Source: Calditrichota bacterium (lineage in GTDB: Bacteria; Zhuqueibacterota; JdFR-76; BMS3Abin05). From it: a stretch of 64,000 nt of DNA. The position numbers were made by a program, and so were the translations under genes. The notes below the pieces were generated by a model. It ran no database searches. It had not been told where the DNA came from and saw only the letters and a program-made list of their open reading frames with translations. The stretch covers positions 30,138 through 94,137 of the forward strand of contig JAADHR010000017.1 of assembly GCA_013151735.1 (NCBI GenBank), given 5' to 3'. Positions 3,956 to 61,198 of this stretch are shown here, piece by piece. Each line of letters starts with the position of its first letter. The stretch's first letter is position 1.

Positions 3956-4153
3956 AATGGTTCTAAATGAGTATATTTAATATTTATAATAAGTAATGCG
4001 CAGGTTTACTGCAATTACACAAACGGTGTTCAGTTCCAATTGCAATGGATGGGTGTTTGTCATGCGGTAAGTTGGCCGTGGCGCGTTGACTAATAAACAG
4101 CCTGAACAATTGCCGCAATGGATTGTGGTAAAATCTTCAACGGAGGACTGTGA

Positions 4154-5230
4154 ATGAAATTTTTGGATTGGATGGTTTACAATAACAGTGTAAAAACCTG
4201 GATCATTGCCGTCTTGATTTTCCTGGTCAGTTTGGTGGCTTTCAAGATTATCAAGAAATTTGTTATTCGTAAATTGGGCGTATTGGCAAAACGCACCAAA
4301 AGTTCCGCAGACGACATCATTTTATTGTTCCTCGAAAAAACCACCTTCCTGATGCTTGTATTCATGGCCATTTTTTTGGGGTCGCTTGTATTGAGCCTCC
4401 CGCTGACCACCCGGCATATTATTCAGAGCATCGTCATTATTGTTCTTCTCTTTCAGGTGGCTGTTTGGGGGAATGCACTCATTTCATTTGGGCTCGATTT
4501 GTACAAAAAAAAGAGCACTGAAAAGGATCCGTCCGAAGCCACAACCATGGTCGCCATTGCATTTGTGGGGCGGCTCATCCTTTATTCGATCATCATTCTG
4601 CTCTCACTGGATAATCTGGGAATTAACATTACGGCCCTTATTACCGGTTTGGGAATCGGTGGAATTGCTGTGGCTCTGGCTGTTCAAAATGTTTTGAGTG
4701 ATTTGTTTGCTTCACTTTCAATTGTACTGGACAAGCCCTTTGTTTTGGGGGATTTTATTATTATTGACAACTATCTCGGGACCGTGGAGCATATCGGTTT
4801 GAAAACGACCCGGGTTCGCAGTCTTTCCGGCGAACAGCTTATTTTTGCTAATAATGATTTATTAAAAAGCCGTATTCGAAATTACAAGCGAATGTACGAA
4901 AGACGGGTCGTTTTTTCAATCGGGGTGACCTACAACACCCCCTACGAGAAGTTGGCGGCCATTCCGGGAATGATCCGGGAAATTGTTGAATCGAAAGAGC
5001 AGGTCCGTTTTGACCGGGCTCATTTTAAATCCTATGGTGATTATTCTCTCAACTTCGAGACGGTGTACTGGGTAAAAAATCCCGATTACAACGTTTATAT
5101 GGACATTCATCAGGCGATCAATCTGGAAATCTTTCGGAAATTTACGAAAGAAGGAATTGAGTTCGCATTTCCGACGCAGACCGTTTATCTGGAAAAAGAA
5201 AATCAAACAGACCAAAATAAACAGGAATAG
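4154..5230 (+). CDS. Mechanosensitive ion channel, MscS family
   Basis: N-terminal TM helices followed by the MscS beta-domain pattern (GTVEHIGLKTTRVRSLSGEQLIFANNDL). 358 aa. Confidence 0.8.
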   Translation: MKFLDWMVYNNSVKTWIIAVLIFLVSLVAFKIIKKFVIRKLGVLAKRTKSSADDIILLFLEKTTFLMLVFMAIFLGSLVLSLPLTTRHIIQSIVIIVLLFQVAVWGNALISFGLDLYKKKSTEKDPSEATTMVAIAFVGRLILYSIIILLSLDNLGINITALITGLGIGGIAVALAVQNVLSDLFASLSIVLDKPFVLGDFIIIDNYLGTVEHIGLKTTRVRSLSGEQLIFANNDLLKSRIRNYKRMYERRVVFSIGVTYNTPYEKLAAIPGMIREIVESKEQVRFDRAHFKSYGDYSLNFETVYWVKNPDYNVYMDIHQAINLEIFRKFTKEGIEFAFPTQTVYLEKENQTDQNKQE

Positions 5231-5238
5231 GAAACGAC

Positions 5239-6759
5239 ATGTTTGAACAGAAGGATGATCATCCGAGAAGCAAAGTAATTATTGTTTCCAATCGGTTGCC
5301 TATTGCGGTTACAAAAGATGAATCCGGAAATTGGCACGTGGAATCGGGCTCCGGTGGACTCGTAACGGCCCTGGCGCCTGTATTAAAAAATCGCGGCGGT
5401 TTATGGATTGGCTGGCCGGGAATACATGCCGAAGAAGGTCTCAACCTGGATGCCCTTCTAAAAAGTGCAACCCGGGACTCCGGCTATCGGCTTAAACCCG
5501 TTCTGCTTACAGAGGAAGAAATCAAAAAATACTACATGGGTTTTTCGAATGAAGTGCTTTGGCCCCTATTTCACGATTTTGTCCCCTTTTGTAATTTTCG
5601 ACCCGAATACTGGAAATTCTACACGCGGGTGAATAAGAAATTTGCTGAGGTTGTTCAGGCGAACAGCAGCGGCCGGGATTTTATCTGGATTCACGACTAT
5701 CATCTAATTGGTGTCGCAAAAGAGCTTCGCGAAATGGGAGACAAGTCAAAATTGGGCTTCTTTTTGCATATTCCGTTTCCCCCTCTGGACATTTTTTTGA
5801 AACTGCCCTGGCGGTTTCAGATTTTGCGTCTCCTGTTTCAATATGATTTGGTCGGATTTCAAACCCTCAGAGACCGCCGCAACTTCATTCAATGCGTTCG
5901 AACCCTCATGCATGATATGTCTATTCAGGGCAAGGGACAGGTTATTCGAATTAAAACGGAGAATCGTGAGATTCGGGTTGGGGTTTTCCCCATCAGTATT
6001 GATTATCATGAATTTGCAAACCTGGCCAAAACGGAAAGGGTTTCCAAAGAAGCCTGGTACATTCACGAAAATCTGCCGGAAGTTAAAATTATTTTGGGTA
6101 TAGACCGGCTGGATTATTCAAAAGGAATTATTGAAAAATTAAATGCTTATCGGAATGCCCTGCTTCGTTACCCGGAGCTGCAGGGCAATGTTATTTTGGC
6201 TCAGATTCTAGTTCCAAGCCGGCGCAGTATTCCCATGTATGCTGCACTAAAGGAAGAGATCGAACAACTGGTGGGCGAGATTAACGGCCAGTTTACGCGT
6301 TCAGGGTGGATCCCGATTTATTACCGCTTCCAGAGCCTGGGACGTGTGGAATTGGTGGCCCACTATCGCACAGCCGAAATACTGCTGGTTACGCCTCCCA
6401 AGGATGGAATGAATCTGGTTTCCAAGGAATATTGTGCCTCAAATATTGAGGAAAATGGCGTGGTTGTGGTCAGCGAATTCGCAGGTGTGGCGGCTCAGTT
6501 TCAAAAAAGCGCCATATTGATTAATCCTTACGATATTGAAGGTGTGGCCGATGCGATTTATCGTGCCTATTCTATGACTCCAGAAGAGCGTCGAATGCGC
6601 ATGCACAAACTCCGCCAATCCATCCGAAAAACAGATATTTACTGGTGGGTCAATTCCTTTCTATTGGCCGCCATTGCCAAACGTTTGGACAATTTTCCAA
6701 TCGTTGAAGATTATATCCCAATATATGACGACGAAGAAAGTTTTTCCGAAAATGGTTAG
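5239..6759 (+). CDS. otsA: Alpha,alpha-trehalose-phosphate synthase (GT20)
   Basis: IIVSNRLPI...GGLVTAL...LWIGWPG and IWIHDYHL are hallmarks of OtsA/TPS. 506 aa. Confidence 0.9.
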
Positions 6760-7353
6760 AATCCGTATTTCTCAAAGCAAACAAATAGTTGTGGTTTGGC
6801 TTTCTGCCGGACTGAAGAATAAACGGGTAGGGCAACCGGGCCCCCATTTTCATTTCCCCATGCAGAACCATTCGAATTCTCCCCCATTTTTCACTCACGC
6901 TTAAATTCTCAATTTCAAATAAGATGTTTCATAGAGAGACACGGCACATCAAATGTGACAATTCTTTCTAAACGAATTGAACATAAATAAGAATAATTAA
7001 CTAATGAAGAAATAACTCATTAAATTATAAGACATTATATTAATAACAAGTTAATATAATATCCCACAAAATAGGGATTTAAAAAAATTATTAATGTGTT
7101 CTGGTATGAATTTTGTGGTGATTTAGCGAAGAAAATACGAACATTTTTTTGGCGGAAAGTTCCGGATGCTCTTCGACAATTAGACACCTAAAACGAAAGA
7201 AAGCCTAAAAGAATGAGGTGTGGTTCTTGTTCTTGATTATCTTTTTAGGGCTTTCTTCCGATAATAATCAGGTAGTTAGAAAAAAGACATGAATCGGCAG
7301 GTAGTATTAAACTGCAAATTAGCTGATTTTATTAAAAAAGGGATTCAAATAAA

Positions 7354-10300
7354 ATGGATAGTTCATTTGCAAACCGGCGTGTTTTCATTTTATTGGCAGC
7401 CATTGTCTTGCTGTTTCAAATGAATGGAATGGCTGCTCCTTTGGGAGTCGAATCTCAGTCAAAAAATTGGCCACAAATGAGTAAAACCGCACAAAATGTG
7501 TTCGAGAATCAATCAAGCGAGTCTGTGACCGGCACCATTGATACCATTGAGGTGACCGGTGATACAACCGCGTTTCCCCGCGATCCGTCCAAAATTTATG
7601 TTATTGCAGATTATCTACCCAAGATTTCAAAAGAAGTCGCGAATATTAAAGTGCAAAGTTCCGGCTTTTTTAGGATTTTTACCCAGGTTTTAAATGATAA
7701 GGATCAGCATAACGAAAGCTTTTTTCTGCAAATTCGTTATCCGGATAGTTCCCTTATTAATGCATGCGATGCCAACCTGGGACCGTACAAGGTCGTTATT
7801 GATACGACCGCTCCGGATTCAGAAGATTCCCAAATCCGGTACGCAGGTACATTTTATTTCAAAAAGGGAATCAACACAATTATCCTGAATCATTATGCCA
7901 AAATTGCCGTTCGTTTTCCAATATTCTGGAATGGGAATACGGACAGTGTCTCGATTCATTCGAATCCTGAAAGCGTCCATTTTAAACAGGTCATTCTAAT
8001 AAAAGTAACCAATCCCTTTGATGCAGCGTTAACCTATTCCGCAAGTGCAGATACACTCATCGATGTGGGGGGGCAAATGGTGAAAGCCGTGAAAGAGGGC
8101 AGACCGTATTCCTATGTATTAAGGGTGAAAAATGTTGGAAAGGGCAGACTCATTCGGTTTAAAATAAAAGCGCTCATTCCCGATTCCACCACCTTTTTTA
8201 ATATTCGGCCTGCACCGGACACAACCCGAAACGATACCGTATTCTGGCAAATTGATTCTCTTTCTCCCGGGGCGGAGCAAACCATTTTGATTGATGCCAA
8301 GTCTTTTACGAATCTGGTTGTAACCCCTCATCGCCTTTTTAGCCGCGCCTGGGTTGAATCCAAATGCGACACCAATCTTGTCAATAATGAAGATTCCACG
8401 ATTGTTTATGCGTATAGTCCGTGTGATTTTTTTACCCCGGAAGCCCCGCAAATTCAAGCAAGTTCACAGTCCGTTTTTGAGAATCAAAGCCTTTTCATCC
8501 GGGTTCGACTTCCCAAACGGGTGATGGCCTGGGATTTACGGGTCCATTATGCGGACGGAACCGTCGATTCAAGTTACGGGGACGCGTTTATCCAGTCAAC
8601 CGGCAATGTGGCCGACCAGTGGTTGACTGTTCACCCTCGTTTCACGAATACGAAACTGTTAACGGCGGCGGATCACGAACAAATCGTGTTTGAGCTTTTT
8701 TCAACAGATTCATGCGGATATTCGAATGTGGCATACGATACGGTAACCGTAAATCGGGAGAAGTGCGATTTGGCCCTGAACTACACGGCTCAAACGGATA
8801 CGATCGTTCATTATCAGGGGGCGGATGTTCCTGCCGTGATGGAAGGAGAAAGCTATTCCTACAAAATTGATCTCACCAATACCGGGCCGGATACCGCCCG
8901 GAGTGTTCGGCTTTGGGTTATCCGGCCGGATTCTGTAACCTGGAGCAGTTTTGTGCCTTCTCCTCAGGTTTTAAAGTCGGATACGGCTTTCTGGACATTT
9001 GATAAAATGTCTCCCGGAAGTGACAGAGAAATTACATTTCAAGCAACGGTAGCGGACTCTATTCCTGTTTCCCCTATTCAATTGCTGAGCAAAGCCGGAA
9101 TACAGGCCAAAGCGGATACGAATCAGGCGAATAATATCGACAGTACACGGGTTCTGGCGTTTGATCGGTGTACATTTTTTACCCCGGAAGCGCCGCAAAT
9201 CCAGCTTGTGCCGAATTCGGTATTTGAAGGAGACAGCGCAGTGGTCCGCGTGCGCCTTCCCAAACGCGTCACCTGGTGGGACATTCGTGTGTACACGGTG
9301 GACGGCCGCGTCGATTCAAGCTACGGGGATGCGTTTATCCAGTCAACCGGCAATGTGGCCGACCAGTGGTTGACCATCCGGCCGAGTTTCACCAACACAC
9401 AGCTTTTGACAGAGGCAAATCAGGAACCCATTGTTTTTGAATTGCGCACGCAGGATGCTTGCGGACATGCGGGATTGGTGCGCGATACGCTTTTTGTAAA
9501 GAGAATTATTGAAAAATGTGATGTGAGCCTGAAATATACGGTTCATACCGATACCTCTGTGGTCTACCAGGGGAAAACGGTTCCTGCTGTATTGGAGGGC
9601 ACATCCTATTCCTACGAAATTATGGTTAGAAATGCAGGCCCGGACACGGCCCGACATGTCCGGATTTGGGCCACCCAACCCGACTCGGCTACGTTTAACC
9701 ATTTTTCCCCTGCTATTCAATATGTAAATGGCGATACAGTCTTTTGGGCTTTTGATAAACTGGCTCCATCGGAAACCGTTAATCTCACATTTTCCGCTCG
9801 CGTTTCAGATAAACTTCCGGCTGCTCCGGTTGAGCTTTTTAGCAAGGCCATGGTACAGGCGGATGACGATACGAACCAGGCAAACAATGCGGATAGCACC
9901 CAGGTGTTTGGATTCAATTCTTGTGCATTTTTCTCTCCGGAATCTCCTAAAATAGAGGTTTCACCGGCTTTTGTGGAAGTAGGGGATAGCGTTCAGGTAC
10001 GTGTCTGGCTTCCCAAGGGCGTGGTATCCTGGGATGTTGATGTCCGGTTTGTAAATGGAAAAATAGATTCCAGTTACGCCGATGCCTTTATCCGTCGTAC
10101 CGGAAATGTTCCGGATCAATGGATCACGCTCCAGCCGGTATTTACCGAAACACGGCTTATTACACGGGCGCTTCAGGAGGCCATTATTTTTGAGCTTCAC
10201 ACGCAAGATCGTTGCGGGAATCGTCAAACAGCTCAGGCTCGGGTTTTAGTGAAGAGCAGTAATGATTGTCTGTTGGATCGAAATGTTTTCAAGGCAGAAG

Positions 10301-10542: not shown

Positions 10543-10543
10543 C

Positions 10544-13141: not shown

Positions 13142-13224
13142 AGGCTCGAGTTCAATCTTTTTCAGTAATAAACAGTGTTTTGCACCTTTTGAATTAAGAA
13201 CCAATTTAGGGGAACGATTAAAAA

Positions 13225-13252
13225 GGTCATCCCATCCGGGATGGCCTTTTTT
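13225..13252 (+). terminator. Rho-independent terminator
   Basis: GGTCATCCC-atcc-GGGATGGCC forms a 9-bp stem (one G-U pair) followed by TTTTTT. Lies 85 bp downstream of the OmpA-fusion gene. Confidence 0.7.
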
Positions 13253-13464
13253 GTGTTCATAGTACGTGCCGGGGACGTCTTGCCACACCAACCCAAATTT
13301 TACTTGAATTTTCCCCAAATATGTTGCAATTTAATATAAGTGTTTGGTTAAAAAACGAAATTCCGCAAACGGCATTTTGTTTTGATAGATTAATTTATGA
13401 GATTTTGCGTGGGGGCAAGAAGAATTTTTATCGAACCCGCTAAAGAACTCAGGGAGGAACGAAT

Positions 13465-14436: not shown

Positions 14437-14619
14437 AAAGTGATTATACTTTTTTTGCAAAACGGATTGTAAAAGTTGGTTTCATTCTTGAATTCGCTCT
14501 AAAAACCACGAATGACAAAACAGCACGAATTTAGTTCCAACAGAACCCATTCGTGAAAATTCGTGAGCAAAGGCTTTTTAGAGCAGACTCATTCTTTAAA
14601 ACTAAAGGGGTTGGTTCCA

Positions 14620-14937: not shown

Positions 14938-14994
14938 TATCATTTAATCGGTCGCTATCTTGGGTTTCTTATTCCCAAACAAAGGACTTTTTTT

Positions 14995-19431: not shown

Positions 19432-19666
19432 CCCAAATCGATTTTGACAGGATAACAGGCCCTGGCTTGGGGGTTGTATCAAAAGTCCTTTTTTGAGAAT
19501 AAAATGAGTATTTGTTATTGCGAACCAAACGGACTAAAATTGCCCAAAATGTTTTCACTCCGATTTTTTATTGCAACTTTTCCTTAAAATTCTTAAATTG
19601 ACATCCGTTTTATTGGGACAGATCAAACAAATCCATCTGCGTGAGATCAAATCTGAAGGTATTTTT

Positions 19667-22501: not shown

Positions 22502-22610
22502 GAAATTCAGGATGGTATTGCTGTGCAGTTTAAACGTGGGTCTTAAAACACAATGTTCAGGTTCTGTGGAACGTGCCGGGGGCGTATGAACCGAAAATCG
22601 GGAGGAAAAG

Positions 22611-28513: not shown

Positions 28514-28657
28514 TTTTTTTAGATAAAGTTCTTAAGTTGCCCTGTAAAGCAGCTATTGCTAAGGTGTTTTTGGAATATTTTGTACCCGGGTTGGGGATGG
28601 GGAGTTGAAAATTGTGATACAACGGATCGATTTGTATTTTTGAAAAGGATGATTGGA

Positions 28658-29641
28658 ATGAATGACTTCCTGCAAAATTTCCGAATGGCAAAATACAGAT
28701 TCCTCTTACGGCCGCGAGATTATCTAAAGCTCTCCCATTACGCCGGAAGCTCGCTTCGCAGAGATTTTATTGATGTGTTCAAGGAAATCAGTTGCACGGA
28801 AAATGAAGTCTCCTGTAAATCCTGTCCCAAAAAGGGTGAATGTGCCTACTATCACGTGATAGAAGGCGGGGTTAAAAAGGACTACGGTGATCTGGCCAAA
28901 CGCTTCCAAACGCCACCCAAACCCTTTGTTTTTGAACCTCCCCTGAGCCGAAAGACCTTCTACAGCATGAATGAGGATATTGCATTCGATCTTATTTTGA
29001 TCGGGAAGGCCCTTGAGTATTTTCCCTATTTTGTGGCCACCATGCGCAAAATCGGTGAGATGGGGATGGGACGAAACCGCGGAAAATTTACCATTCGAAA
29101 AATCTTGGGTATAAATCTGAAAACGAATTATGTGGTCAGTGAGTATTCGTTTGCGCCATCAGAGGAATCGTTCGACCGGGATATTTCTGTTTCTTTGGAG
29201 GATATCTACAAAAAGAATATCTGGAAAAACAACGACCCGCTGGGAGGCGTGGAAGTTACATTTTTGACCCCCTTGCGGATGAAGCGCGTGGGATACACCA
29301 ATTGGCATTTGTATTTTCGGACGCTGATTAAGAATATTCTGTCGCGTGTCTCAATCTTAAATTATTTCCACAATAATTATCCGGATTTGGTTGAATTCCC
29401 GGAGCTTGTTGAAAATGCCCGCAGTATTCGGATTTCAGAGGATAATTTGATCTGGGACGATTGGCGGAATCCCCGCAAGCGGGATGACTCAAACCACAAA
29501 TTGGGCGGCTACCTGGGCGACATTTCTTACACCGGGAATTTGGAAGAGTACTGGCCCCTGCTCAAAATTGCAGAAATCTTGCACGTGGGAAAAAATTGCG
29601 GGTTTGGAATGGGACGAATTCTGGTGGAAGCCAATAAATAG
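28658..29641 (+). CDS. Hypothetical protein with a Cys4 knuckle and two Gly-rich loops; possible orphan RAMP/Cas6-like RNA-binding protein
   Basis: Start at the ATG with an AAGGA RBS 8 nt upstream. The N-terminus (KYRFLLRP..LKLSHYAGSSLRRDFIDVF) resembles the Cas6 N-terminal pattern. Contains C-x6-C-x2-C-x5-C. Two glycine-rich segments (IGEMGMGRNRGKF and a C-terminal VGKNCGFGMGRIL) resemble the RAMP G-rich loop. Confidence 0.5.
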   Translation: MNDFLQNFRMAKYRFLLRPRDYLKLSHYAGSSLRRDFIDVFKEISCTENEVSCKSCPKKGECAYYHVIEGGVKKDYGDLAKRFQTPPKPFVFEPPLSRKTFYSMNEDIAFDLILIGKALEYFPYFVATMRKIGEMGMGRNRGKFTIRKILGINLKTNYVVSEYSFAPSEESFDRDISVSLEDIYKKNIWKNNDPLGGVEVTFLTPLRMKRVGYTNWHLYFRTLIKNILSRVSILNYFHNNYPDLVEFPELVENARSIRISEDNLIWDDWRNPRKRDDSNHKLGGYLGDISYTGNLEEYWPLLKIAEILHVGKNCGFGMGRILVEANK

Positions 29642-31925: not shown

Positions 31926-32405
31926 TCAGAATTGCGTTTCAATTCTTTGAATAAAATCCAAATCCGAGAAGGACTGGTTTGCGTCATCCGGATTATTTAA
32001 TTCTTCAGCCGAATGAAACTCGTTTTCCAGGGATGAATCCAATGAATAAATCGGAATTAATTCATCAATTTGTGTAATTCTGAAAATTCTGAGAAGGGAG
32101 GGCTTCAATCCCAAAAGATAGAATGGACGGTTTTCACTATCCAGACGATCGTGCAGGGTAATAATAAAGGCAAGCCCCCTGCTGTCGATGCTTTCCACAT
32201 TGGACAGATCAAAAATAAGGGTGCCCGAATGCGGAAGAACGGCCATCAGACTGCGGTAAACCAGTGGAACGGTTTTTTCGGTGAGACGAAGAAGATGCGG
32301 AAAGCCAATAATAACCCCGTCGGCGGATTCCCGAATGCGTGCTTCGAGCAATTTGGAATGAGGGGATTGTTTTTCATTGGTGTAGTAAATGGTTCGTGAT
32401 GCCAT
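31926..32405 (-). CDS. STAS domain protein (anti-sigma-factor antagonist-like)
   Basis: TLIFDLSNVESIDSRGLAFIITLHDRL is a typical STAS (SpoIIAA-like) core. 159 aa. First gene of the minus-strand operon. Confidence 0.6.
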   Translation of the reverse strand: MASRTIYYTNEKQSPHSKLLEARIRESADGVIIGFPHLLRLTEKTVPLVYRSLMAVLPHSGTLIFDLSNVESIDSRGLAFIITLHDRLDSENRPFYLLGLKPSLLRIFRITQIDELIPIYSLDSSLENEFHSAEELNNPDDANQSFSDLDFIQRIETQF

Positions 32406-32635
32406 AATTGCCTCTTTTTTACCCCGCTAATTTTATGAAATTTTCAGTACTTATTTGTTGCCGAAGTTGCTTTTTGCGCGTTTTAAAGAAATTGACCCAG
32501 AGGGTGGATTCAGCATGTGCTGTGCCCATATTTATTATCGGCAAAAAGAAAATGGACTTTAAAATTAATTGAAAATAATAAGTTATGGACAAAGATGTCG
32601 AATGACTAACCGCTGTAAAAAGGAGGGTGTAAATG

Positions 32636-34240: not shown

Positions 34241-34625
34241 CTGTTTTCCCTTTTGTTTGGTTCGGATTGCTTTGTTTTAAAAGTAAATTAAAATCACAAA
34301 AAATAAAAAGTTAGATTTACAAAGAAATTTCTAACCAATATAATTTTTTCAATTGAAAAAATCAATAGATTTTGTTGAGTTTATCGGCAGAAATTAAATT
34401 TTTTAATAGAGAAAAAACAATTAATGAGAAAATAGGAGTGTGTTCGGGGGGAGATTCCAATGAATTGGAGTGATTTTACAGGGGCTGACCTGCTCGTTGG
34501 ACGTTTAATATCAACGCTTTTTGGTGGGCGGCAGACGCATTCAATAAAAAAATTTTTTCTTGAAGTGACGGAAAAAAATTCATATATTTCAGACAACGGA
34601 GTCTTAAAACTTGAATGGAGAAAAC

Positions 34626-48049: not shown

Positions 48050-48077
48050 TAGGCTTTTACACATTTTGCAATTGCGA

Positions 48078-48110: not shown

Positions 48111-48290
48111 TATCTGGAAAGAAATGGACGGGTTCATAGCAGGCTGAAAGTCGTTCTATTAAAAAATGAATAAAATTTCATTGTTTTTTTAAGAAAATAG
48201 GGCTATATTTGTTTCTTATGATGAAATTGTCCGACGGAAAGAAACCCACACGTGTCTTTGCAATGATATGAGCAGAGTGAAAATTGCTTT

Positions 48291-49800: not shown

Positions 49801-50667
49801 ATGAAGGAAGACAGTCAAGATAACGGATGGGCAGATCTTCACATACACACCACGTGGTCCGATGGGGTCTTCTCACCCGAATACATGGTTCAAAAAGCCG
49901 GAGAAATTGGGTTGCGGGCCATTGCCATAACGGATCATGATGCCTTGCGGGGTATTGATGAAGCGACAAAAGTTGGCAACGAAATGGGTATCGAAATTAT
50001 TCCGGGGATTGAACTCAGTACGACAAACGGTATTCATGATGTTCATATTCTGGGGTATTTTTTTGATCCCCACAACGAAGATATATTGGAGTATGTGCGC
50101 TTTTTTCAGGAAGAAAGAATTAAGCGTGCCAAAAAAATACTCGACAAGCTTTGGAAAATGGGCATTCGATTAAATGCAGAGGTTGTTATTTCGAGCGCGG
50201 GCCATGGAGCAGTAGGACGTCCCCACATTGCCGATGCCCTAATGGAAGAGGGATTCGTCCTTTCGTATGATGAAGCATTCTACAAATACATTGGGGACGG
50301 GAAACCGGCCTTTGTGGAAAAACCAAAAATATCGCCCGTCGAAGGAATTGATCTCATTCACAAGGCGGGGGGGCTCACCTTTCTGGCCCATCCGGGAATG
50401 GACTTGACGGATACCGAAATCTTTCAGGTGATGAAGCAGGGCCTCGACGGTCTGGAAATTCTTCACCCCAAACATTCTGACGAGAAGGTCAATTATTTTT
50501 ATAAATTTGCCAGCGACCATCGGCTGCTGGTATCGGGAGGCTCCGATTGCCATGGAAACCGGAAAGGAGAGATGATGATGGGAAAGTTCAATGTCCCTTA
50601 TAAATTTGTTGCAGAGATGAAAAAGGCTCTTCAGTTATTGCGCGCAGCGGGCTCCAACTTGAGTTGA
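49801..50667 (+). CDS. PHP-domain phosphoesterase (TrpH/YciV, RNase AM-like)
   Basis: ADLHIHTTWSDG...AIAITDHD is the PHP metal-binding pattern. 288 aa. Confidence 0.8.
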   Translation: MKEDSQDNGWADLHIHTTWSDGVFSPEYMVQKAGEIGLRAIAITDHDALRGIDEATKVGNEMGIEIIPGIELSTTNGIHDVHILGYFFDPHNEDILEYVRFFQEERIKRAKKILDKLWKMGIRLNAEVVISSAGHGAVGRPHIADALMEEGFVLSYDEAFYKYIGDGKPAFVEKPKISPVEGIDLIHKAGGLTFLAHPGMDLTDTEIFQVMKQGLDGLEILHPKHSDEKVNYFYKFASDHRLLVSGGSDCHGNRKGEMMMGKFNVPYKFVAEMKKALQLLRAAGSNLS

Positions 50668-51326
50668 ATAAATACAGAATGATTCAATCCGGCAAATTGC
50701 AAATACATACGGTAGTCGTCGGTCCGTTTTCCGTGAATTGTTATCTGGTTCATCCCCAAAACAGACCGGAGACGGCCATCATTGACCCCGGTGGTGACGA
50801 AGATCTTATTTTTATGGAGATTCAAAATCTTCGATTAACTCCCCGGCTTATTCTGCTTACGCACGGGCATATCGATCATTTGTTGGCGGTACAGGCACTG
50901 AAGCATCGGTTTCAAATTCCTGTTCTGGCCAATGAGAATGAAAAGGAGTTTCTGGCAAACCTGGCTCTGCAGGGTCAACTTCTTGGCCTTTCGAGTCCAC
51001 CGGGGTTTGAGGTGGATCGCTGGGTTTCTGAGCCCGAAGAAATTGCGCTGGGACCGATCCATTTGAAAGTGATTGACACTCCCGGACACACACCGGGAAG
51101 CTGCAGTTATGTGGGACCGGGGGAGGTATTCGTCGGCGACACCCTTTTTGCGGGGTCTATTGGTCGCACGGATCTGCCGGGCGGCGATTATCAAACTCTT
51201 ATTGATTCGGTTAAAAATAAATTATTTGTTTTACCGGATGATTTTGATGTGTTTCCGGGTCACGGTCCCCGAACCACTATCAGAAACGAAAAGCGATTTA
51301 ACCCGTTTGTTAGAGGCAACTCATGA
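50664..51326 (+). CDS. MBL-fold metallo-hydrolase (glyoxalase II-like)
   Basis: THGHIDH and DTPGHTPGS motifs. 220 aa. Confidence 0.8.
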   Translation: MNKYRMIQSGKLQIHTVVVGPFSVNCYLVHPQNRPETAIIDPGGDEDLIFMEIQNLRLTPRLILLTHGHIDHLLAVQALKHRFQIPVLANENEKEFLANLALQGQLLGLSSPPGFEVDRWVSEPEEIALGPIHLKVIDTPGHTPGSCSYVGPGEVFVGDTLFAGSIGRTDLPGGDYQTLIDSVKNKLFVLPDDFDVFPGHGPRTTIRNEKRFNPFVRGNS

Positions 51327-52042
51327 AAGAATTTTTTAGCTCCCTGATCGATCGGAAAAAAACAATTCACACTTCAGAAAAAGTACTCACCGTCGAGGAC
51401 ATACGAAGCAATGTCCTTGTGGATGCGTATCTGAACGGGGCTGACTCACACATGGAGGGCTGTTCCTGCATCGAACACGGACGACGGCATGCCAATTTGG
51501 TTTCAAATATTTCGTACAATATCGTTAAGCGCGTGGGGCGTTCCGATCGTGAAGCGGAACTCGCGGCCATTGCGGGTTATTTGCACGATATCGGATATGT
51601 TATTAACCGGGCCCAGCACGCACAAATGGGAGCCTTGCTGTCGCATACCATTCTTTTACACATGGGAATGAAACCCCGTGAAATTATCGAAGTGGTTGCA
51701 GCCATTGGAAATCATGACGAAGCCAATTTCGACACCGTAAATCCGATTGCAGCCGCTCTTATGCTGGCCGATAAATCGGATGTTCACCGGTCGCGCGTCC
51801 GTTCATCAACTGTTGAAACATTGCAGCCGGAAGAGCGTATTTACTTTGCCGTAGAAAATTCCTTTTTGCGTGTCGATGGCGATGGCAAGGAAATTACTCT
51901 GGAATTGTCTATTGATACTCAAATCTCCAAAATCATGGATTATTTTGGTATTTTTCTGGGACACATGCGGGCCTGCGAAAAGGCGGCCTCCTATTTATCG
52001 TGTAAATTTCGTTTGGAAATTAACGGAACAAAGGTTATGTAG
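51323..52042 (+). CDS. HD-domain phosphohydrolase
   Basis: YLHDIGY and GNHDEA (HD motif). 239 aa. Confidence 0.65.
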   Translation: MKEFFSSLIDRKKTIHTSEKVLTVEDIRSNVLVDAYLNGADSHMEGCSCIEHGRRHANLVSNISYNIVKRVGRSDREAELAAIAGYLHDIGYVINRAQHAQMGALLSHTILLHMGMKPREIIEVVAAIGNHDEANFDTVNPIAAALMLADKSDVHRSRVRSSTVETLQPEERIYFAVENSFLRVDGDGKEITLELSIDTQISKIMDYFGIFLGHMRACEKAASYLSCKFRLEINGTKVM

Positions 52043-52053
52043 CTCGGGGAACT

Positions 52054-53043: not shown

Positions 53044-53178
53044 AGAATTATTAAAAATGAGTAACATTTCGATTTCTCCTTGATTTTATTCCCTAAAATG
53101 AGTATGTTTATTTGTGAGGATCATCCCCTTAAAATTATTAATAAATAAGAAATTACGCCGAAATATATTGGCATATTG

Positions 53179-53194
53179 CGGAATAGCCCTTGCG
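53179..53194 (+). promoter_or_regulatory. Candidate sigma-54 (-24/-12) promoter
   Basis: cGGaat-N5-TTGCg has the GG-N10-GC spacing and a good -12 element, about 35 bp upstream of the ATG at 53227. The -24 half is weak. Confidence 0.3.
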
Positions 53195-53226
53195 TTTCAG
53201 TCGGGAAACAATGCGGGGAGTTCAAA

Positions 53227-54801: not shown

Positions 54802-54848
54802 GTGGGATGAATTAAAAGATAAGGGAAAAATCCCTTCAAAGGAGCCGT

Positions 54849-57800
54849 GTGCCGGTTGGCTCTGCCGCTGAAAGGGGTTTTGTGCAAAATAGGGCAAAAG
54901 GAATGATTGAGAAGATTCCTCACACAAATGGCGAAACAAATTTAAGCAAAGATGTCTTATCTTCGTGGGACACCATTCTTCGAATCACCAACCTGGTGCA
55001 TCATGGTTTTTTTATGATTCAGGCAAAAAACCTGCGAATTTTGCAGGCAAATGCCTATTCTGCCAAGCTTACCGGATATCCTGTTCAAGAGCTTATCGGG
55101 AAAAGCCTTGAATCGCTTCATCTCTCGGATGAAATTCCTCTGATTCAGCTCGAAATTCAACGGCTGGAATTTGAGGGAAAAACAGAAATTGAAGGAATTC
55201 ACGTCTGCCAAAAAAATGGATTTCAAATTCCGGTGGACATCGTCTTTTCGCGTCTTCCCGGAACCGGAGAAGAGGGGCCGATTGATTATTTTTTGGCTGT
55301 TTATCGGGAAGCCGTTTCAGGGGGGTGGCAGGATGCGTATACCCGCCGAAATCAGGAATTAATTACCCTGATGGAAATGGGGCAAACCATGGCATCGGCT
55401 CTTGACCTTGAGGAAATAATCGATCTTTCGCTGATCAAGATCGGAACGATCAGCCACGCCGTTTACGCCTCTCTGTTCTTAAAAGCGACTGATGGAAATT
55501 CGGAGCTTTTTCGGGCTCAAAAAATTCCACCGGAAGAAATTGTTCTTTTCGATCAACCCTGGAAAGTGGGTCTGGAAGAAGGCCCGTACCGGGATGTTCT
55601 GGATTCAAAAGAAACCCTCATTGTGGAAAATGTTCTGGAAGAATCCCGTTACGAAAGGTGGCAGCCCATTGCTCAGCGGATTGGCTACAGTGCCACCATC
55701 TCTATTCCTCTCATCCCCAAAGACGATGCAATTGGTGTGCTGAGTTTGTATTACGAGTCACCCAGACAATTCCTCCAGGACGAAATCAATTTTTTAAAGA
55801 CGGCCGGAACGTACCTGGCCATTTCCATCGAAAATTCAAGGCTTTACAAACAATATCAGCAGAAAACAGATCAGATTGCAGCCCTCAATAAGATTATAAA
55901 CTCCGTTAATTCCTCTCTGGATGTGGAAGAGGTCATACGGATAATCGCACTTGAGGTGCAAAAGATTGTGGATTTTGATTTTATATCGATTATGCTTTTT
56001 CATGACAATACCGAGCATATTCAGTATTTTCCGCTGGGAACGGCCCCGCTTGCCAAACGGCTCGGCGATAAAAACTGGGTTCCTATTGAAAATTCAAATC
56101 TGGGATGGATCAATTTTTGGGGCGAAAGCCAGGAGGCAACGGACAGCGGTCTGGAATATGGCATCCACGACCGTCGCAGCCAGATTGAACGGGAGCTGCA
56201 TTCACAAATTCGGGCTCTGCTGATGTCAAAGGGGAAGTACATCGGCACCTTCAGTGTCGGCAAACTGGACAAAAATGCGTATTCCCCGGCTCACAAGCGT
56301 TTACTCAAACAAATTGCAAATCAGGTTTCCACCGCGATCGAAAATGCCCTTTTGTACCAGGAAGTTAAACGAAGCATGATGGAATATTCTGCCCTGGTCG
56401 ATGTGAGCAATTCCCTGGGACTCAGTTTGAATAGCAATGTAGTGGTCGATTCGATTGTGAAGGCTGCTGCCGTGGCCATGGGAGCAAAATTAAGTACCAT
56501 TTGGTTTGTCGGAAGTTCGGGTTCCGGAAGGAGTGTACCGGAGAACAATGTCTTTGATTTAATGCTGAAAACGCCTCTGGCAAAAAAGCTGAAACAGATG
56601 ATTGTTGAAAAAGAGCCCCTTTCCATCAGTGATCTTCATAAGGAGGGGTTTACCCCGCCGGAAATTTCGGACCATCCGTTAAGCGGCAATCTGAAGTCCT
56701 ATCTGGGTGTTCCGATTCTTTCGAATGGAGAAACAATTGCCATTTTAAGCGTTTACTGGGATCAATTCCATGAGATTGAATCCCGGGAAATTCGGCTGCT
56801 CAGTGCCATTGCCAGTCAGGCCACGATGGCTCTGGAGAATGCCAGACTTTTTGAGCGGGAGAGAAAGCGGTCGGCCCAGTTGGCAATGGTTAACGAGGTG
56901 GGCAAACGAATTGCATCTACCCTGAATTTGAATCATCTGCTGGATAATGTGGTTCGGGCGATTTACGAAATATTTCGTTACCGGAATGTTTCTATCTATC
57001 TCTCGGAAAATGCACATGAAAGACTGGTTCTGAAGTCCCAAAAGGGACAGCTTTCGGACATCCTGAAAATAGGCTCGGAAAACACGGAAACAGAAGGCCC
57101 CATCTGGAAGGCCTATCGAAGCGGACACACCGTTCTCATAAACAATCTGACCCGAAATGAGCGTATTGATGAAGGATATCCTGAAAGCGGTTCGCTGCTG
57201 AGCATTCCACTCAAAATTGCCGGCCGGCCCATGGGCGTATTGGCCCTGCTGGCGGGCGATCGAAATGCCTTTGACGAACGGGATGTGAATGCCTTTGAAG
57301 CGCTTTCGGGACAGCTTTCAAGCGCCATTCAGAATTCCCGGCTGTATGAGGAAACCCGTCAAAATACGGAAAAACTGAGCCGTGCCAATGAAGAACTGGA
57401 GGATTTTGTTTTTACGGTATCGCACGACTTGAAGGCACCCATCGTATCCATTAGCGGATTTACCACAATTCTGATGACGGAATACGGCGACCGGATTGAT
57501 GAAGAGGGCCATCACTATTTGGAACGCATTCAGGGTAACGTCAAACAAATGGAAAACCTGATTCGCGATTTGCTGGAACTCTCTCGGATCGGCCGGGTTG
57601 TGAATCCGTTTGAACGGGTTGCCATTGCCGATATCGTCAAAACAGCCATCGACGATCTTCTTTTGCAAATTAAACAAAAGAACGTAAATGTAATCGTTCA
57701 GGAAAAGATGCCGGAAGTGGTTTGCGATAAGGCCCGGATTCTGCAGGTATTCACAAACCTGATTAGTAATGCCGTGAAATACATCGGCAACACGCCCGAA

Positions 57801-58082
57801 CCCAAAATCGAAATCGGGTTCAAGGAGCTGGATGAATCGTATCAATTCTATGTAAAAGATAATGGAATTGGGATTGATCCGAAATATCACAAAAAAATAT
57901 TTGAATTATTTCATATGCTAAAAGAACTAAAAAGTGTTGAAGGAACAGGCGTTGGTTTAACCATTGTTCGGCGAATTGTGGAAAATCACAGGGGACGTGT
58001 TTGGGTGGAATCCGAAAAAGGAAAGGGTTCAACGTTTTATTTTACTTTGCCCAAAACACAGGGCGAGAAGACGTCTGATTGA
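54849..58082 (+). CDS. Multi-domain sensor histidine kinase (PAS, several GAF domains, HisKA, HATPase_c)
   Basis: GTG start with an AAAGGAG RBS. 1077 aa. H-box (FVFTVSHDLKAPIVSI) and a C-terminal ATPase (GTGVGLTIV). Confidence 0.85.
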   Translation: MPVGSAAERGFVQNRAKGMIEKIPHTNGETNLSKDVLSSWDTILRITNLVHHGFFMIQAKNLRILQANAYSAKLTGYPVQELIGKSLESLHLSDEIPLIQLEIQRLEFEGKTEIEGIHVCQKNGFQIPVDIVFSRLPGTGEEGPIDYFLAVYREAVSGGWQDAYTRRNQELITLMEMGQTMASALDLEEIIDLSLIKIGTISHAVYASLFLKATDGNSELFRAQKIPPEEIVLFDQPWKVGLEEGPYRDVLDSKETLIVENVLEESRYERWQPIAQRIGYSATISIPLIPKDDAIGVLSLYYESPRQFLQDEINFLKTAGTYLAISIENSRLYKQYQQKTDQIAALNKIINSVNSSLDVEEVIRIIALEVQKIVDFDFISIMLFHDNTEHIQYFPLGTAPLAKRLGDKNWVPIENSNLGWINFWGESQEATDSGLEYGIHDRRSQIERELHSQIRALLMSKGKYIGTFSVGKLDKNAYSPAHKRLLKQIANQVSTAIENALLYQEVKRSMMEYSALVDVSNSLGLSLNSNVVVDSIVKAAAVAMGAKLSTIWFVGSSGSGRSVPENNVFDLMLKTPLAKKLKQMIVEKEPLSISDLHKEGFTPPEISDHPLSGNLKSYLGVPILSNGETIAILSVYWDQFHEIESREIRLLSAIASQATMALENARLFERERKRSAQLAMVNEVGKRIASTLNLNHLLDNVVRAIYEIFRYRNVSIYLSENAHERLVLKSQKGQLSDILKIGSENTETEGPIWKAYRSGHTVLINNLTRNERIDEGYPESGSLLSIPLKIAGRPMGVLALLAGDRNAFDERDVNAFEALSGQLSSAIQNSRLYEETRQNTEKLSRANEELEDFVFTVSHDLKAPIVSISGFTTILMTEYGDRIDEEGHHYLERIQGNVKQMENLIRDLLELSRIGRVVNPFERVAIADIVKTAIDDLLLQIKQKNVNVIVQEKMPEVVCDKARILQVFTNLISNAVKYIGNTPEPKIEIGFKELDESYQFYVKDNGIGIDPKYHKKIFELFHMLKELKSVEGTGVGLTIVRRIVENHRGRVWVESEKGKGSTFYFTLPKTQGEKTSD

Positions 58083-58385
58083 AAACACGCGCCAGGGCGT
58101 GCACTCTTTAACTCCCTGTAACGCAATGAGGGCTTTTCGTCGTCCGCCGGTGGGCGGATTCCTTACAATGGCAGAAAGGCAATTGTGTTACGTGAGAATC
58201 GCCCGGCGCAGGTGTGTTCTCTTTTGAATACGGACGAAAGATTTCGGGAAAACAGTCTCATATTCGGAACGGATTCCGAACTAAAAAGCAAGGCGAGGGG
58301 AAAAATACGAATCCCTTGGGAGGAATCGCAACGGGCCGGGGACTGGGATGAAGCGAGTGTGCGAGGATAAATTAAAGGGAAAGCA

Positions 58386-58859
58386 ATGGATGATCTGTTA
58401 AAAGGGATACGTATGTCTCAGCCGTCTGTTTTGCTGGTCGAGGACAATCCGGATCACGCGGAAATTATTACCCGTGTACTGCATAAGATGATGAAGACGA
58501 TTCAAGTTTTCCATGCTTCAGATGGACAACAGGCTCTGGACATGCTCGGTCTGGGCCGAGAGACAAAGCCTTCCGCCACAATTCCCATCCCAAAACTGAT
58601 CCTGTTAGACATTCGTCTGCCTAAGCTCGATGGTACCGAAGTGCTTAAGGCAATTAAGGCCTCCCGCATCCTGAAAAAAATTCCTGTTATTGTCCTGACC
58701 ACTTCTGAACGAAAAGAAGAGGTCAAAAAAATGTACGCATTGGGTGCAAACAGCTATATTGTAAAACCCGGCAAATTTGAAGATTTTATGGGACAACTCA
58801 AAAAACTTCATGCGTATTTGGAGGACTATTCAATTCTAAAAGATTCAAAGGTTTCATAA
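58386..58859 (+). CDS. Single-domain response regulator
   Basis: VLLVEDNPDH...LILLDIRLPKLDG...YIVKP are receiver motifs. Confidence 0.8.
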   Translation: MDDLLKGIRMSQPSVLLVEDNPDHAEIITRVLHKMMKTIQVFHASDGQQALDMLGLGRETKPSATIPIPKLILLDIRLPKLDGTEVLKAIKASRILKKIPVIVLTTSERKEEVKKMYALGANSYIVKPGKFEDFMGQLKKLHAYLEDYSILKDSKVS

Positions 58860-58873
58860 AAAGGATCGTATCG

Positions 58874-60706
58874 ATGTCTGAGAGAATTCTTGTGGTCGAA
58901 GATTATCCGGATCAGATCGAATTAATCGACAGGGCATTTCGCGCCCAAAAATCCTTTGGTTTTGATGTGGAATTTACGTCAACCGGAGAAGACTGTATTC
59001 GGAAATTTACGGAAAGCACCTACGATGCCCTTCTGTTGGATTACAAGTTGCCGGATTATTCCGGTCTGGAAGTGCTGCAAATTCTAAAGAACATGGGCGT
59101 ATCCGTTCCGGTTATTATCATTACGGGACAGGGAGATGAACGTGTGGCCGTTCAGGCCATGAAAGAAGGCGCAGCCGATTATATTGTTAAAGATGTTGGG
59201 TATATGAAAACGCTCCCCAAAATCGTGAAAAATACAATCAATACCTACCGCCTTCGAGAGAAACTGCACGAAAAAGAGGAGTTTTTGGAAAAACTGGTTG
59301 ACAATGTCGATGATATCATTTTCTCAATTGATATGGACTACCGGTTTACATTCGTTAACCAGACCATTCGAGATCTCGGATATGATCCGGATGAGTTTAT
59401 CGGAAAATCGTTTCTGACACTGCTGCCCGAGTTTACCGATACGCAAAAGGTCAATGAAATTCTTCAAAATCCGGTTGAAAAAAACTACGAATTGCAGTTT
59501 AAAACGAAAAACGGCTCCATTCAGTACATGCTGATTTCCTTTTCTCATTTGACCGATAAAAAGGGAAAACTCATTTTGGGAATCGCAAAAAATATTACAG
59601 AGAAGAAAAAATTAGAGGAGATGATTCAGGAAAGTAAGAATAAACTCCAGACCCTTTTTGACAGCATTACCGATTATATCACGGTAGTTGACAAAAACTA
59701 TGGAATTGTGATGGCAAACTGGATGGTAGCCAAAAAGGTGGGGGAAACGCCCGAAAACATCATTGGACGAAAATGTTATGAGGTGTATTCTGAAGATAGA
59801 GAACCCTGTTTGAATTGTGTGCTTCAAAAAACCATGAAATCCAATAAAGCGGAGTTCATGGAAAAACGAATGGGGGACAAGGTGTTCCAATTCTGGAGTT
59901 ACCCCATGCTGGATCTAAAAGGCCGGCTCAAATATGTGATTGAATATGTGAAGGACGTTACAGAGCAAAAGAATCTGGAAAAGAAGCTCATTCAATCGGA
60001 AAAACTGGCCACAATCGGATTGCTGGCTTCCGGTGTGGCCCACGAGTTGCGGAATCCCCTGAATATTATTGAAACGGCGCGCTATTATTTAAGTGAAATT
60101 TTACCCGAAGAAAACGATGATGCCCAGAATAAACTCATGATTATCAAAAAAAGTGTTACGCGCGCCTCCAATATTATCAATAATCTACTGGAATTTTCAC
60201 GTCATTCCGGTAAAGATAAGGAAAAGATTGATGTCAACCTTTTAATTGACCGGACGTTGTCTTTGATCGAAAAAGATCTTTATGCGAACAATATTTCGGT
60301 TGTCAAAAGCTATCAGAAAATTCCGCAGGCCTATTTTAACAGCGATTCCTTAAAGCAGGTTTTTTTGAATATTATCATCAATGCCATTCAGGCCATGCCC
60401 GGGGGAGGACAGCTTTTTATTGAAACCAGTGCGACGGGGGATGACAAGCTGAGGATCACTTTCACCGACACGGGGCAGGGGATTCCCGATGAAAATATGT
60501 CACACATTTTTACGCCATTTTTCACCACCAAGGAGGTCGGAAAAGGCACCGGGCTCGGCATGTATGTTTCGCATTCAATTATTCAGCGTGAAGGCGGTGA
60601 AATATCGGTAAAAAGTCGATTGGGAGAAGGAACCACATTTATAATTGAATTACCCATTGCGGAAAAGATGCTGATCCGCGAAAAATCAGTAGGAGCGGGC
60701 CAATGA
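58874..60706 (+). CDS. Hybrid sensor kinase: N-terminal receiver + 2 PAS + HisKA + HATPase_c
   Basis: ILVVEDYPDQ...LLDYKLPDYSG receiver. H-box (LASGVAHELRNPL) and a G-box (GTGLGMYVS). Confidence 0.85.
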   Translation: MSERILVVEDYPDQIELIDRAFRAQKSFGFDVEFTSTGEDCIRKFTESTYDALLLDYKLPDYSGLEVLQILKNMGVSVPVIIITGQGDERVAVQAMKEGAADYIVKDVGYMKTLPKIVKNTINTYRLREKLHEKEEFLEKLVDNVDDIIFSIDMDYRFTFVNQTIRDLGYDPDEFIGKSFLTLLPEFTDTQKVNEILQNPVEKNYELQFKTKNGSIQYMLISFSHLTDKKGKLILGIAKNITEKKKLEEMIQESKNKLQTLFDSITDYITVVDKNYGIVMANWMVAKKVGETPENIIGRKCYEVYSEDREPCLNCVLQKTMKSNKAEFMEKRMGDKVFQFWSYPMLDLKGRLKYVIEYVKDVTEQKNLEKKLIQSEKLATIGLLASGVAHELRNPLNIIETARYYLSEILPEENDDAQNKLMIIKKSVTRASNIINNLLEFSRHSGKDKEKIDVNLLIDRTLSLIEKDLYANNISVVKSYQKIPQAYFNSDSLKQVFLNIIINAIQAMPGGGQLFIETSATGDDKLRITFTDTGQGIPDENMSHIFTPFFTTKEVGKGTGLGMYVSHSIIQREGGEISVKSRLGEGTTFIIELPIAEKMLIREKSVGAGQ

Positions 60707-61113
60707 AGGATCGCTATGATGTGCTGGTTGTCGATGACGAAATGGATATTCTTCAGCTGTTGGAGATTCTCTTGACCCGGAAGGGATTCAAGGTGAAAAC
60801 AGCAGAAAACGGCATGGATGCCCTGATGAAATTAAATCAATATGACTTTAATGTGCTCTTAACGGATATTAAAATGCCGGCCATGGACGGGATGCGCCTT
60901 ATTGAGGTAGCCAGGCGCGATTTCCCGGACGTTCAAATTCTGGTTTTTACCGGATTCGGTTCAATGGACACCGAAAGGAAAGTGTTACAAATGGGGGCCA
61001 GCAAATATTTTATGAAACCCCTTCCTATGGAAGACCTGCTAAAAGAGCTGAAAGATGCCTGCAAATTAAAAGAGAAAAACACACCCTCCGATCAAAATTT
61101 AATGGGTAATTGA
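60703..61113 (+). CDS. Single-domain response regulator
   Basis: ATGA overlap with the upstream kinase gene. VLVVDDEMD...LLTDIKMPAMDG are receiver motifs. Confidence 0.8.
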   Translation: MKDRYDVLVVDDEMDILQLLEILLTRKGFKVKTAENGMDALMKLNQYDFNVLLTDIKMPAMDGMRLIEVARRDFPDVQILVFTGFGSMDTERKVLQMGASKYFMKPLPMEDLLKELKDACKLKEKNTPSDQNLMGN

Positions 61114-61198
61114 AATTTTTAATTGACAATATTCATTAAAATTATTACATTTATTATCAAGTCAAAAATGAGTAAATCTAAAATGCAGGTATCACCGA

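Follow-up and report, generated by a model that had tools for sequence, protein, structure and literature searches.

A recurrent intergenic 10-mer in a Calditrichaeota contig is probably a piece of ordinary Bacteroidetes-style promoter regions

The sigma-A promoters of Bacteroidetes and Chlorobi are described by the motifs TTG-N17-23-TAnnTTTG in Flavobacterium and TA[ATC][ATC][AT]T in Chlorobaculum (10.1101/172254; PMC9723704). The organism studied here can be placed in the same FCB group, as it belongs to the Calditrichaeota and the next-nearest homologues of its polyprenyl synthase come from Bacteroidota and Ignavibacteria; a literature search turned up no studies of Calditrichaeota promoters. 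The promoters of the 64-kb window (the whole stretch of DNA that was analysed) resemble the sigma-A promoters of Bacteroidetes and the FCB group (-33 TTG / -7 TAnnTTTG) in carrying a TA..TT(T/G) box instead of TATAAT, in the TTG that lies ~20 nt upstream of this box, and in the strong strand and spacing specificity of the arrangement in upstream regions. In contrast to those of Bacteroidetes, their -35 element often comes closer to a full TTGACA-like hexamer, with the two hexamers tightly spaced at 17 nt, TAnnTTTG has a weak final G, and an A-tract is marked at positions -20..-17. A further difference is that, unlike those of Bacteroidetes (PMC6847099), the genes of the window keep Shine-Dalgarno sequences, which about half of them carry, often as GGAGG.

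This promoter grammar is visible in simple counts. TTG-N20-TAnnTT occurs 23 times in the window against 11.3 expected, and in upstream regions it is found 13 times in sense and 4 times in antisense orientation, with a sharp preference for this spacing (N18, N19, N21 and N22 give 1, 0, 1 and 3 occurrences there). TAnnAT is found once at the same N20 spacing, though overall it is nearly as common as TAnnTT (41 versus 52), and A occupies the spacer positions -20..-17 in 8-11 of the 13 sense promoters. Relatives show the same bias, with 9 sense versus 2 antisense occurrences of TTG-N20-TAnnTT. Both the -35 and the -10 elements are conserved in orthologues at 3949-3977, 19571-19599, 53080-53108 and 61123-61151. 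De novo motif search with a Gibbs sampler over 60 upstream regions was of no help, as it settled on T-tracts and the tails of terminators.

It is against this background that we examined a word to which the initial annotation had drawn attention. AAAATGAGTA is present in four exact copies, at 19501, 53054, 53095 and 61165, all on the + strand, and the variant TAAATGAGTA, which occurs once in the window, makes a fifth at 3964 (+). Our counts bear out these positions and the intergenic location of all five copies, and where the initial annotation had estimated ~0.1 chance copies, dinucleotide-preserving shuffles give an expectation of 0.14 exact copies, with none of 100 shuffles containing at least four. 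The 9-mer AAAATGAGT occurs 10 times in the window, about as often as its own sub-words predict, so that the excess of the word is partly compositional. Of the 10 occurrences of AAAATGAGT, 6 are in coding DNA. AAATGAGTA, the form ending in TA, is intergenic in five of six cases in a sequence that is 7.7% intergenic; intergenic specificity is confined to this TA-ending form. When the choice of word is corrected for (any intergenic 9-mer at five copies or any 10-mer at four, in Markov models of orders 1 to 4 for the window's intergenic DNA), p is ~0.01-0.03, a genuine significance, though a modest one for a scan at genome scale.

The copies lie 190 (3964), 166 (19501), 173 (53054), 132 (53095) and 34 nt (61165) from the start codons; this range of 34-190 nt agrees with the 30-190 bp given previously, with 19501 measured to ATG 19667 and not to TTG 19571. 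The T-rich tail ascribed to every copy follows directly at 3964, 19501 and 53095, comes only past ACA at 53054 and is absent at 61165. Since the + strand carries 45 of the 54 called genes, the common orientation of the copies with their downstream genes is weak evidence. Starting from the TA of the word, a TAnnTT(T/G) box is present at 3964 (TATATTTA) and 53095 (TATGTTTA) and absent at 53054 (TAACATTT), 19501 (TATTTGTT) and 61165 (TAAATCTA). A TTG ~20 nt before this TA is found at 53095 alone (TTGATT); the -35 position is taken by TGGATA at 3964 and by GTGAAG, with a 16-nt spacer, at 53054, and no such element is seen at 19501 and 61165. The window has no matches to Rfam families at gathering score and none to tRNAs. 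Relatives contain one exact AAAATGAGTA in ~150 kb, in the orthologue of 53095, which amounts to one in ~12 kb of intergenic DNA versus four in the 4.9 kb of the window. A metagenome scan that used the OmpA/DUF11 protein did not turn up any relatives, and look-ups of the exact TrkH, MscS (P0121, P0122) and ApbE products, aimed at further sequence of this genome, gave no hits.

Two of the copies fall into conserved promoter-like elements at the same position. The copy upstream of mscS-otsA (3964..3973, +) covers ~-20..-11 of TGGATA-17-TATATT(T) (3949..3977, +), an element recognised by consensus scan and conservation, with a predicted transcription start at ~3984 and the mscS start codon at 4154. 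The element is kept across relatives with 70-92% protein identity, and the TA at 3972-3973 forms the first bases of TATATTTAA, which L089, L091 and L093 all keep unchanged; GAG has become GAA, GAA and ACT there, respectively, and L091 and L093 no longer have the ATG. The promoter-like element opens at the otsB stop codon, which its -35 overlaps, so that the conservation of the latter is confounded by coding constraint. A generic sigma-70 consensus scan independently reports both 3949-3977 and 61123-61151. CAAATGAGTA at 7474 was considered as a gene start and rejected, because ATG 7354 is the start that is conserved, and 7474 lies in frame within coding DNA that is not conserved in L089.

Upstream of the kinase operon, the copy at 53095..53104 (+) occupies -20..-11 of the conserved promoter P2, TTGATT-17-TATGTT(T) (53080..53108, +; predicted start ~53115), which precedes the start of the PAS histidine kinase at ATG 53227. 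L001 has the copy unaltered, and L003 has AAAATAAGTA in its place (GAG to AAG); TTGATTTTATT and TAT.TT of P2 are conserved in both, and the leader downstream of P2 is not alignable in L003. The conserved promoters at 3964 and 53095 are probably functional. The second copy of this region (53054..53063, +) begins 11 nt past the stop codon of the DHH gene and 41 bp upstream of the first, at ~-61..-52 relative to the P2 start and within a block that is A/T-rich and conserved. L001 and L003 keep AATTATTAAAAAT and TAACA of this P1 region and have AGT and AAT instead of GAG. The copy would be either UP-element-like DNA or part of a weak tandem promoter, GTGAAG-16-TAACAT. UP elements and the A-tract spacers of sigma-70 promoters likewise place A/T-rich, A-tract DNA upstream of or in the promoter, and the 53054 copy is where UP elements sit; the putative A-tract element of the window, unlike them, lies within the spacer (-20..-17).

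Relatives with 93-95% protein identity either lack the copies at 19501 and 61165 or have them in decayed form, and a conserved promoter adjoins each copy. The copy at 19501..19510 (+), AAAAT-GAG-TATTTG without a TTG at N20, is ~100 nt upstream of the conserved promoter of the 4HB-sensor/trkH operon, TTGCAA-17-TAAATT (19571..19599, +), whose spacer ends in AAAAT-TCT and whose predicted start at ~19606 puts the copy at ~-105..-96. In L081 (TrkH 95% identical), this block is almost unchanged, the copy has no counterpart, and conservation starts only at TTTTTTATTGCAAC. The TTG at 19571, called as the start codon of the 4HB sensor, would really be the -35 element of this promoter; the true start is ATG 19667, in agreement with the 254-aa product called in relatives. 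The 19501 copy itself, with its poor -10 hexamer TATTTG, is best seen as a lineage-specific promoter look-alike. The copy at 61165..61174 (+) lies at ~+8..+17 in the leader that would start at ~61158 from the conserved promoter of the polyprenyl synthase gene (start codon GTG 61199), TTGACA-17-TACATT(T) (61123..61151, +; scan score 10/12), with a spacer ending in AAAAT-TAT. TTGACA is invariant in L001-L004 (77-93% protein identity); L001, L002 and L004 also share the -10 hexamer TACATT, for which L003 has TAACTT. The copy itself reads AAAATAAGTG in L001 and AAAATGAGTG in L002 and has no counterpart in L003 and L004. Its own -10 would read TAAATC, and the alignments mark it as a putative lineage-specific look-alike in an A/T-rich promoter neighbourhood.

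The explanation we favour, and consider probable, is that AAAATGAGTA is a piece of ordinary Bacteroidetes-style promoter regions whose middle letters are largely coincidental, and not a shared regulatory box. The main promoters would be composed of a TTG, 20 nt with an A-rich last part (typically AAAA(T), ~-20..-16) and a TAnnTT(T) box, and within this grammar the 10-mer would resolve into the spacer A-tract, a T, three unconstrained bases (GAG here) and the TA that opens the -10/-7 box. The copies at 3964 and 53095 would then form the core of the conserved putative promoters for mscS-otsA and the kinase operon, the one at 53054 would lie in the conserved A/T-rich zone just upstream of P2, and those at 19501 and 61165 would be look-alikes, with TTGCAA-17-TAAATT and TTGACA-17-TACATT as the actual promoters. 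In the orthologous alignments (mscS; kinase P1/P2), the A-run and TA(nn)TTT are kept and TGAG is changed; the central TGAG is the least conserved part of the word. We infer binding of these elements by the housekeeping sigma factor, as well as the transcription start positions, and take the common GAG to be a coincidence or a mild purine preference, not a recognition element. The promoter element suggested initially thus survives in kind for two, perhaps three copies, and not as a discrete element common to all. Against the favoured reading stand the five identical 9-mers, which exceed what the grammar with a free N3 predicts (if AAAAT-N3-TA is common to ~15-40 sites, finding GAG in four or five of them would be unlikely, of the order of 1e-3 to 1e-2 with any triplet allowed), the retention of the exact word by the two non-conserved copies, a rare product of neutral drift, the lack of a TTG at N20 in four of the five copies, and the failure of three of the five copies to show TAnnTT.

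That the word recurs by chance alone, as A/T-rich intergenic DNA with no link to promoters, would fit a look-elsewhere p of only 0.01-0.03, an initial scan that spanned many windows and many words, the general over-representation of AAAAT, AAATG and AATGA and the six coding occurrences of AAAATGAGT; we nevertheless regard it as unlikely, because three copies lie inside conserved blocks amid flanking intergenic DNA that is not conserved, and two of these three are in exact register with a -35/-10 pair, so that promoter-type constraint acts on at least a part of the word. Another reading is an extended -10, as the initial annotation had considered. In E. coli this element reads TGn-TATAAT, and the -16 region of Gram-positive bacteria reads TRTG; the word likewise has a TG just before the -10 hexamer and is accompanied by weak -35 elements. 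If TGAG were a lineage-specific element of this type, AAAATGAGTA(nnTT) would define promoters without a good -35 that are read by the housekeeping or a group-2 sigma factor. The TTG at N20 is missing in four of the five copies, so a TG element compensating for a weak -35 is conceivable, the word is commoner than a free N3 predicts, and the similar AAAATGAATA occurs at 48163, upstream of tatC. Relatives also encode, 8 kb upstream of mscS and outside the window, a 284-aa RpoD/RpoS-like sigma factor with regions 1.2-4, which scores under the curated cut-offs of both the RpoD and the RpoS models; primary sigma factors of the Bacteroidetes type are likewise short (~285 aa). However, the gap between TG and hexamer is two bases (TG-AG-TA) and not the classical one, TG is replaced by A or other bases in L091, L093 and L003 at two conserved promoters, and also in L001, the copies at 19501 and 61165 combine poor -10 hexamers (TATTTG, TAAATC) with lack of conservation, and the word is lacking elsewhere in relatives, all of which makes this reading quite improbable.

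The other proposal made at the outset, an alternative sigma site or transcription-factor box, would have meant that an uncultured phylum has a hitherto unknown regulon or sigma specificity. The word would then define a regulon of genes for signalling and for the homeostasis of osmolarity and potassium (mscS-otsA, trkH, sensor kinases, polyprenyl synthase). In its favour, mscS, otsA and trkH, downstream of the copies, could plausibly be co-regulated under osmotic stress, the kinase operon is preceded by the tandem pair, and every copy is oriented with its downstream gene, an argument weakened by the strand bias of the genes. We found nothing else in its support: the central bases vary at orthologous promoters, no dyad or direct-repeat partner was seen on reading the flanks of the five copies by eye, and in the sister sample ERZ23495180 the upstream regions of mscS (L091) and trkH (L082) have no such word in common. 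Nor is there the fixed distance to transcription starts that the initial annotation had required of a shared element, as the offsets run from ~-105 to ~+17 relative to the predicted starts (~-100 to ~+17 relative to the conserved promoters). The consensus sequences of sigma-28 (TAAA-N15-GCCGATAA), sigma-54 (TGGCAC-N5-TTGC), sigma-B (GTTT-N12-15-GGGWAW) and ECF factors (GAAC...CGT) do not fit any of the five when these are read against them, and a sigma-B-like reading (GAGTAT versus GGGTAT) was discarded, as no copy has GTTT 12-15 nt upstream. The absence of a fixed offset and of symmetry, the unconserved GAG and the few copies in relatives together make a dedicated sigma or factor site unlikely, and the osmotic regulon very unlikely. 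Just as improbable is the idea that AAATGAGTA(T) became a recognition element only recently in this lineage, either as an extended -10-like TGAG element or as the binding site of a regulator specific to the lineage, after point mutations had placed it upstream of mscS-otsA, trkH, the kinase cluster and polyprenyl synthase; this would explain the exact word in the window versus near-misses in sister genomes. Finally, each copy could be read as the start (AAA-ATG-AGT) of a regulatory leader peptide or small upstream ORF that encodes 8-27 residues beginning MS(I/N/M/K)..., and all five do open ORFs, of 9, 27, 8, 16 and 12 codons, three of which start with MSI or MSM. This we hold to be scarcely credible and have set aside: a Shine-Dalgarno sequence, which about every second gene of the window has, precedes none of the five, L003, L091, L093 and L001 have lost the ATG, the peptides are not conserved, and at 3964 and 53095 the ATG would be upstream of the predicted transcription start.

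Elsewhere in the window, a good sigma-28-type site is found at 32564-32535 on the - strand. As a by-product of the analysis, this Calditrichaeota genome appears to combine TTG-N20-TAnnTT promoters that have a spacer A-tract with the use of Shine-Dalgarno sequences, a grammar that helps the annotation of promoters and true start codons in the lineage, as in the case of the 4HB sensor gene.

The 10-mer AAAATGAGTA has four exact matches in the window, all on the forward strand (19501, 53054, 53095 and 61165), against 0.14 expected, and none of 100 dinucleotide-preserving shuffles gave four; the variant TAAATGAGTA is found at 3964, and there are 21 one-mismatch variants (6.1 expected). The recurrence described in the initial annotation is real, and all five copies are intergenic in a window that is 92% coding under a simple gene model. 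Five of the six occurrences of AAATGAGTA are likewise intergenic; the exception, at 7474, lies in frame within the coding sequence of a DUF11 gene, whose conserved start lies at 7354. The same word is the top over-represented 7-mer and 8-mer of upstream regions. Two points qualify this excess: with the choice of word left free, Markov models of order 1-4 give a probability of 0.01-0.03 for any intergenic 9-mer at five copies, or any 10-mer at four, and the 9-mer AAAATGAGT occurs ten times, six of them in coding DNA, a count near the prediction from its own sub-words. Downstream of the copies lie mscS and then otsA (3964), a four-helix-bundle sensor gene and then trkH (19501), a PAS histidine kinase gene, the first of a kinase and receiver-protein cluster (53054 and 53095), and a polyprenyl synthase gene (61165). 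Rfam and tRNA scans of the window gave no matches.

The 10-mer is probably what a Bacteroidetes-like promoter grammar ordinarily yields in A/T-rich DNA upstream of genes, together with some coincidence, rather than one discrete regulatory box common to these genes. The window has 23 occurrences of TTG and TAnnTT separated by 20 nt (N20), where 11.3 would be expected; in upstream regions the pair is found 13 times in sense and 4 times in antisense orientation, and other spacings are scarce there (N18, 1; N19, 0; N21, 1; N22, 3). Position 5 of the hexamer is strongly T: TAnnAT, almost as common overall as TAnnTT, occurs once at N20. Among the 13 sense promoters, 8-11 carry A at each position from -20 to -17 and 7 carry T at -16, and the pattern TTGnnn-9 nt-AAAAT-N3-TAnnTT fits four conserved promoters, with TAT, TCT, TCA and GAG as N3. 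The N20 peak recurs in related genomes (9 sense, 2 antisense), and the grammar agrees with the sigma-A motif published for the Bacteroidetes/Chlorobi group, TTG-N17-23-TAnnTTTG with a -7 box at -12 to -5 (10.1101/172254; PMC9723704). Whereas Bacteroidetes proper lack Shine-Dalgarno sequences, the window combines such promoters, with an A-tract at -20 to -17, with Shine-Dalgarno-like sequences, often GGAGG, at about half of its genes; finding the two together in a Calditrichaeota genome is a useful, if modest, by-product.

Under this grammar the 10-mer would consist of the spacer A-tract (AAAA), a T, three unconstrained bases (GAG) and the TA that opens the -10/-7 box, and comparison with orthologous loci at 70-95% protein identity (L001-L004, L081-L088 and L089-L095) suggests that the copies at 3964 and 53095 are cores of conserved promoters. 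Upstream of mscS, where a promoter scan gave TGGATA-17-TATATT at 3949-3977, TATATTTAA is unchanged in L089, L091 and L093 and the A-run before it is retained, while GAG becomes GAA, GAA and ACT, respectively, and the ATG is missing in two of the three. In a 92%-identical relative (L089:9580-9960, and L090), a ~270-nt insertion separates this promoter from mscS, equivalent to about 4000-4100 of the window; the window, L091 and L093 all lack this insertion. Some 8 kb upstream of mscS, adjoining a trehalose cluster (treT, ABC transporter, otsB-mscS-otsA), relatives have a gene for a sigma-70-family factor of 284 aa that contains regions 1.2-4 (L089:954-1808, L091:1132-1986, L093:1386-2240). This factor is RpoD/RpoS-like yet scores below both curated cut-offs, and could be either a stress sigma factor or a primary sigma factor of the short type typical of FCB bacteria.

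Upstream of the kinase gene, a ~75-nt block is kept as far as L003, and the leader past it is not alignable. Within it, the 53095 copy lies inside the promoter P2, TTGATT-17-TATGTT (53080-53108), and is exact in L001 and AAAATAAGTA in L003. At the 53054 copy, which would fall at about -61 to -52 of P2, AATTATTAAAAAT and TAACA are kept in relatives, with GAG replaced by AGT (L001) and AAT (L003); the conserved A/T-rich zone around it may represent UP-element-like DNA or a tandem promoter of low strength. Nearby, 50628-52046, which takes in an entire HD-domain gene (51323-52042) and most of the gene for an MBL-fold hydrolase (50664-51326), aligns with nothing in L001 or L003; the flanking matches are only ~57 nt apart in L001 and ~730 nt in L003. 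The alignment indicates an indel or replacement between close relatives.

The copies at 19501 and 61165 appear to be look-alikes, not conserved and with defective hexamers (TATTTG and TAAATC), each adjoining a conserved promoter. For the sensor gene, a 254-aa product is called in relatives, placing the true start at ATG 19667; the mechanical ORF start, TTG 19571, is the -35 TTG of its promoter. The block TTTTTTATTGCAACTTTTCCTTAAAATTCTTAAATTGACATC, that is TTGCAA-17-TAAATT at 19571-19599, is kept between the window and L081, where the 19501 copy has no counterpart. The polyprenyl synthase promoter (10/12 in a generic promoter scan) has its TTGACA unchanged in all four relatives (L001-L004) and its TACATT retained in three, L003 having TAACTT. 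The 61165 copy, ~14 nt downstream of TACATT and hence at about +8 to +17 of the leader if transcription starts near 61158, as predicted, is decayed to AAAATAAGTG in L001 and AAAATGAGTG in L002, with nothing comparable in L003 and L004.

The initial annotation had proposed a shared promoter element or transcription-factor box, and had named the lack of a fixed distance to transcription starts as evidence against it. As the copies are placed differently relative to the conserved promoters, their predicted offsets to the start vary; the promoter idea is right in part, for 3964 and 53095 as conserved promoter cores, and fails for a discrete element, given the variable GAG and offsets. Two observations are unaccounted for: five identical central triplets exceed the prediction of a free N3, and the exact word is still present in the two non-conserved copies. 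The choice of exact matches in the window skews the comparison with relatives toward apparent gain in the window; even so, relatives have none of their own, with a single exact 10-mer across ~12 kb of their intergenic sequence, compared with four in the 4.9 kb of the window. We therefore keep two rivals, TGAG as a lineage-specific extended -10-like promoter subclass, with which the missing TTG at N20 in four of five copies agrees, and the 10-mer as the site of a lineage-specific regulator. Against both stand the varying offsets, the lack of conservation of TG and GAG at the two conserved promoters, flanks that show no symmetry when read by eye, and the mscS and trkH upstream regions of one sister sample, which have no common word of such kind. 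A small-ORF reading was rejected, as the ATG is not conserved and none of the five copies has a Shine-Dalgarno sequence, which about half of the genes in the window possess.

Other elements were noted in the window. ACGTGCCGGGG(R)CGT occurs in three intergenic regions (13264-13273, 22571-22580 and 37965-37987), upstream of aldo/keto reductase, enoyl-CoA hydratase and COX1-like genes, with an inverted pair at 37965/37978 (CCCGGCACGT-tcg-ACGTGCCGGG), and may be an operator or small palindromic element. A 361-aa protein has a C-terminal Cas6 domain (28556-29641; Pfam E = 5e-18), yet the window showed neither tandem nor CRISPR-like arrays. On the minus strand, a near-perfect predicted sigma-28/FliA-type promoter, TAAAGTCC-N11-GCCGATAA (32535-32564), is found upstream of a gene for a STAS-domain (anti-sigma antagonist-like) protein (31926-32405), and a weaker GCCGATAA site (34381-34388) upstream of a CitMHS transporter gene.
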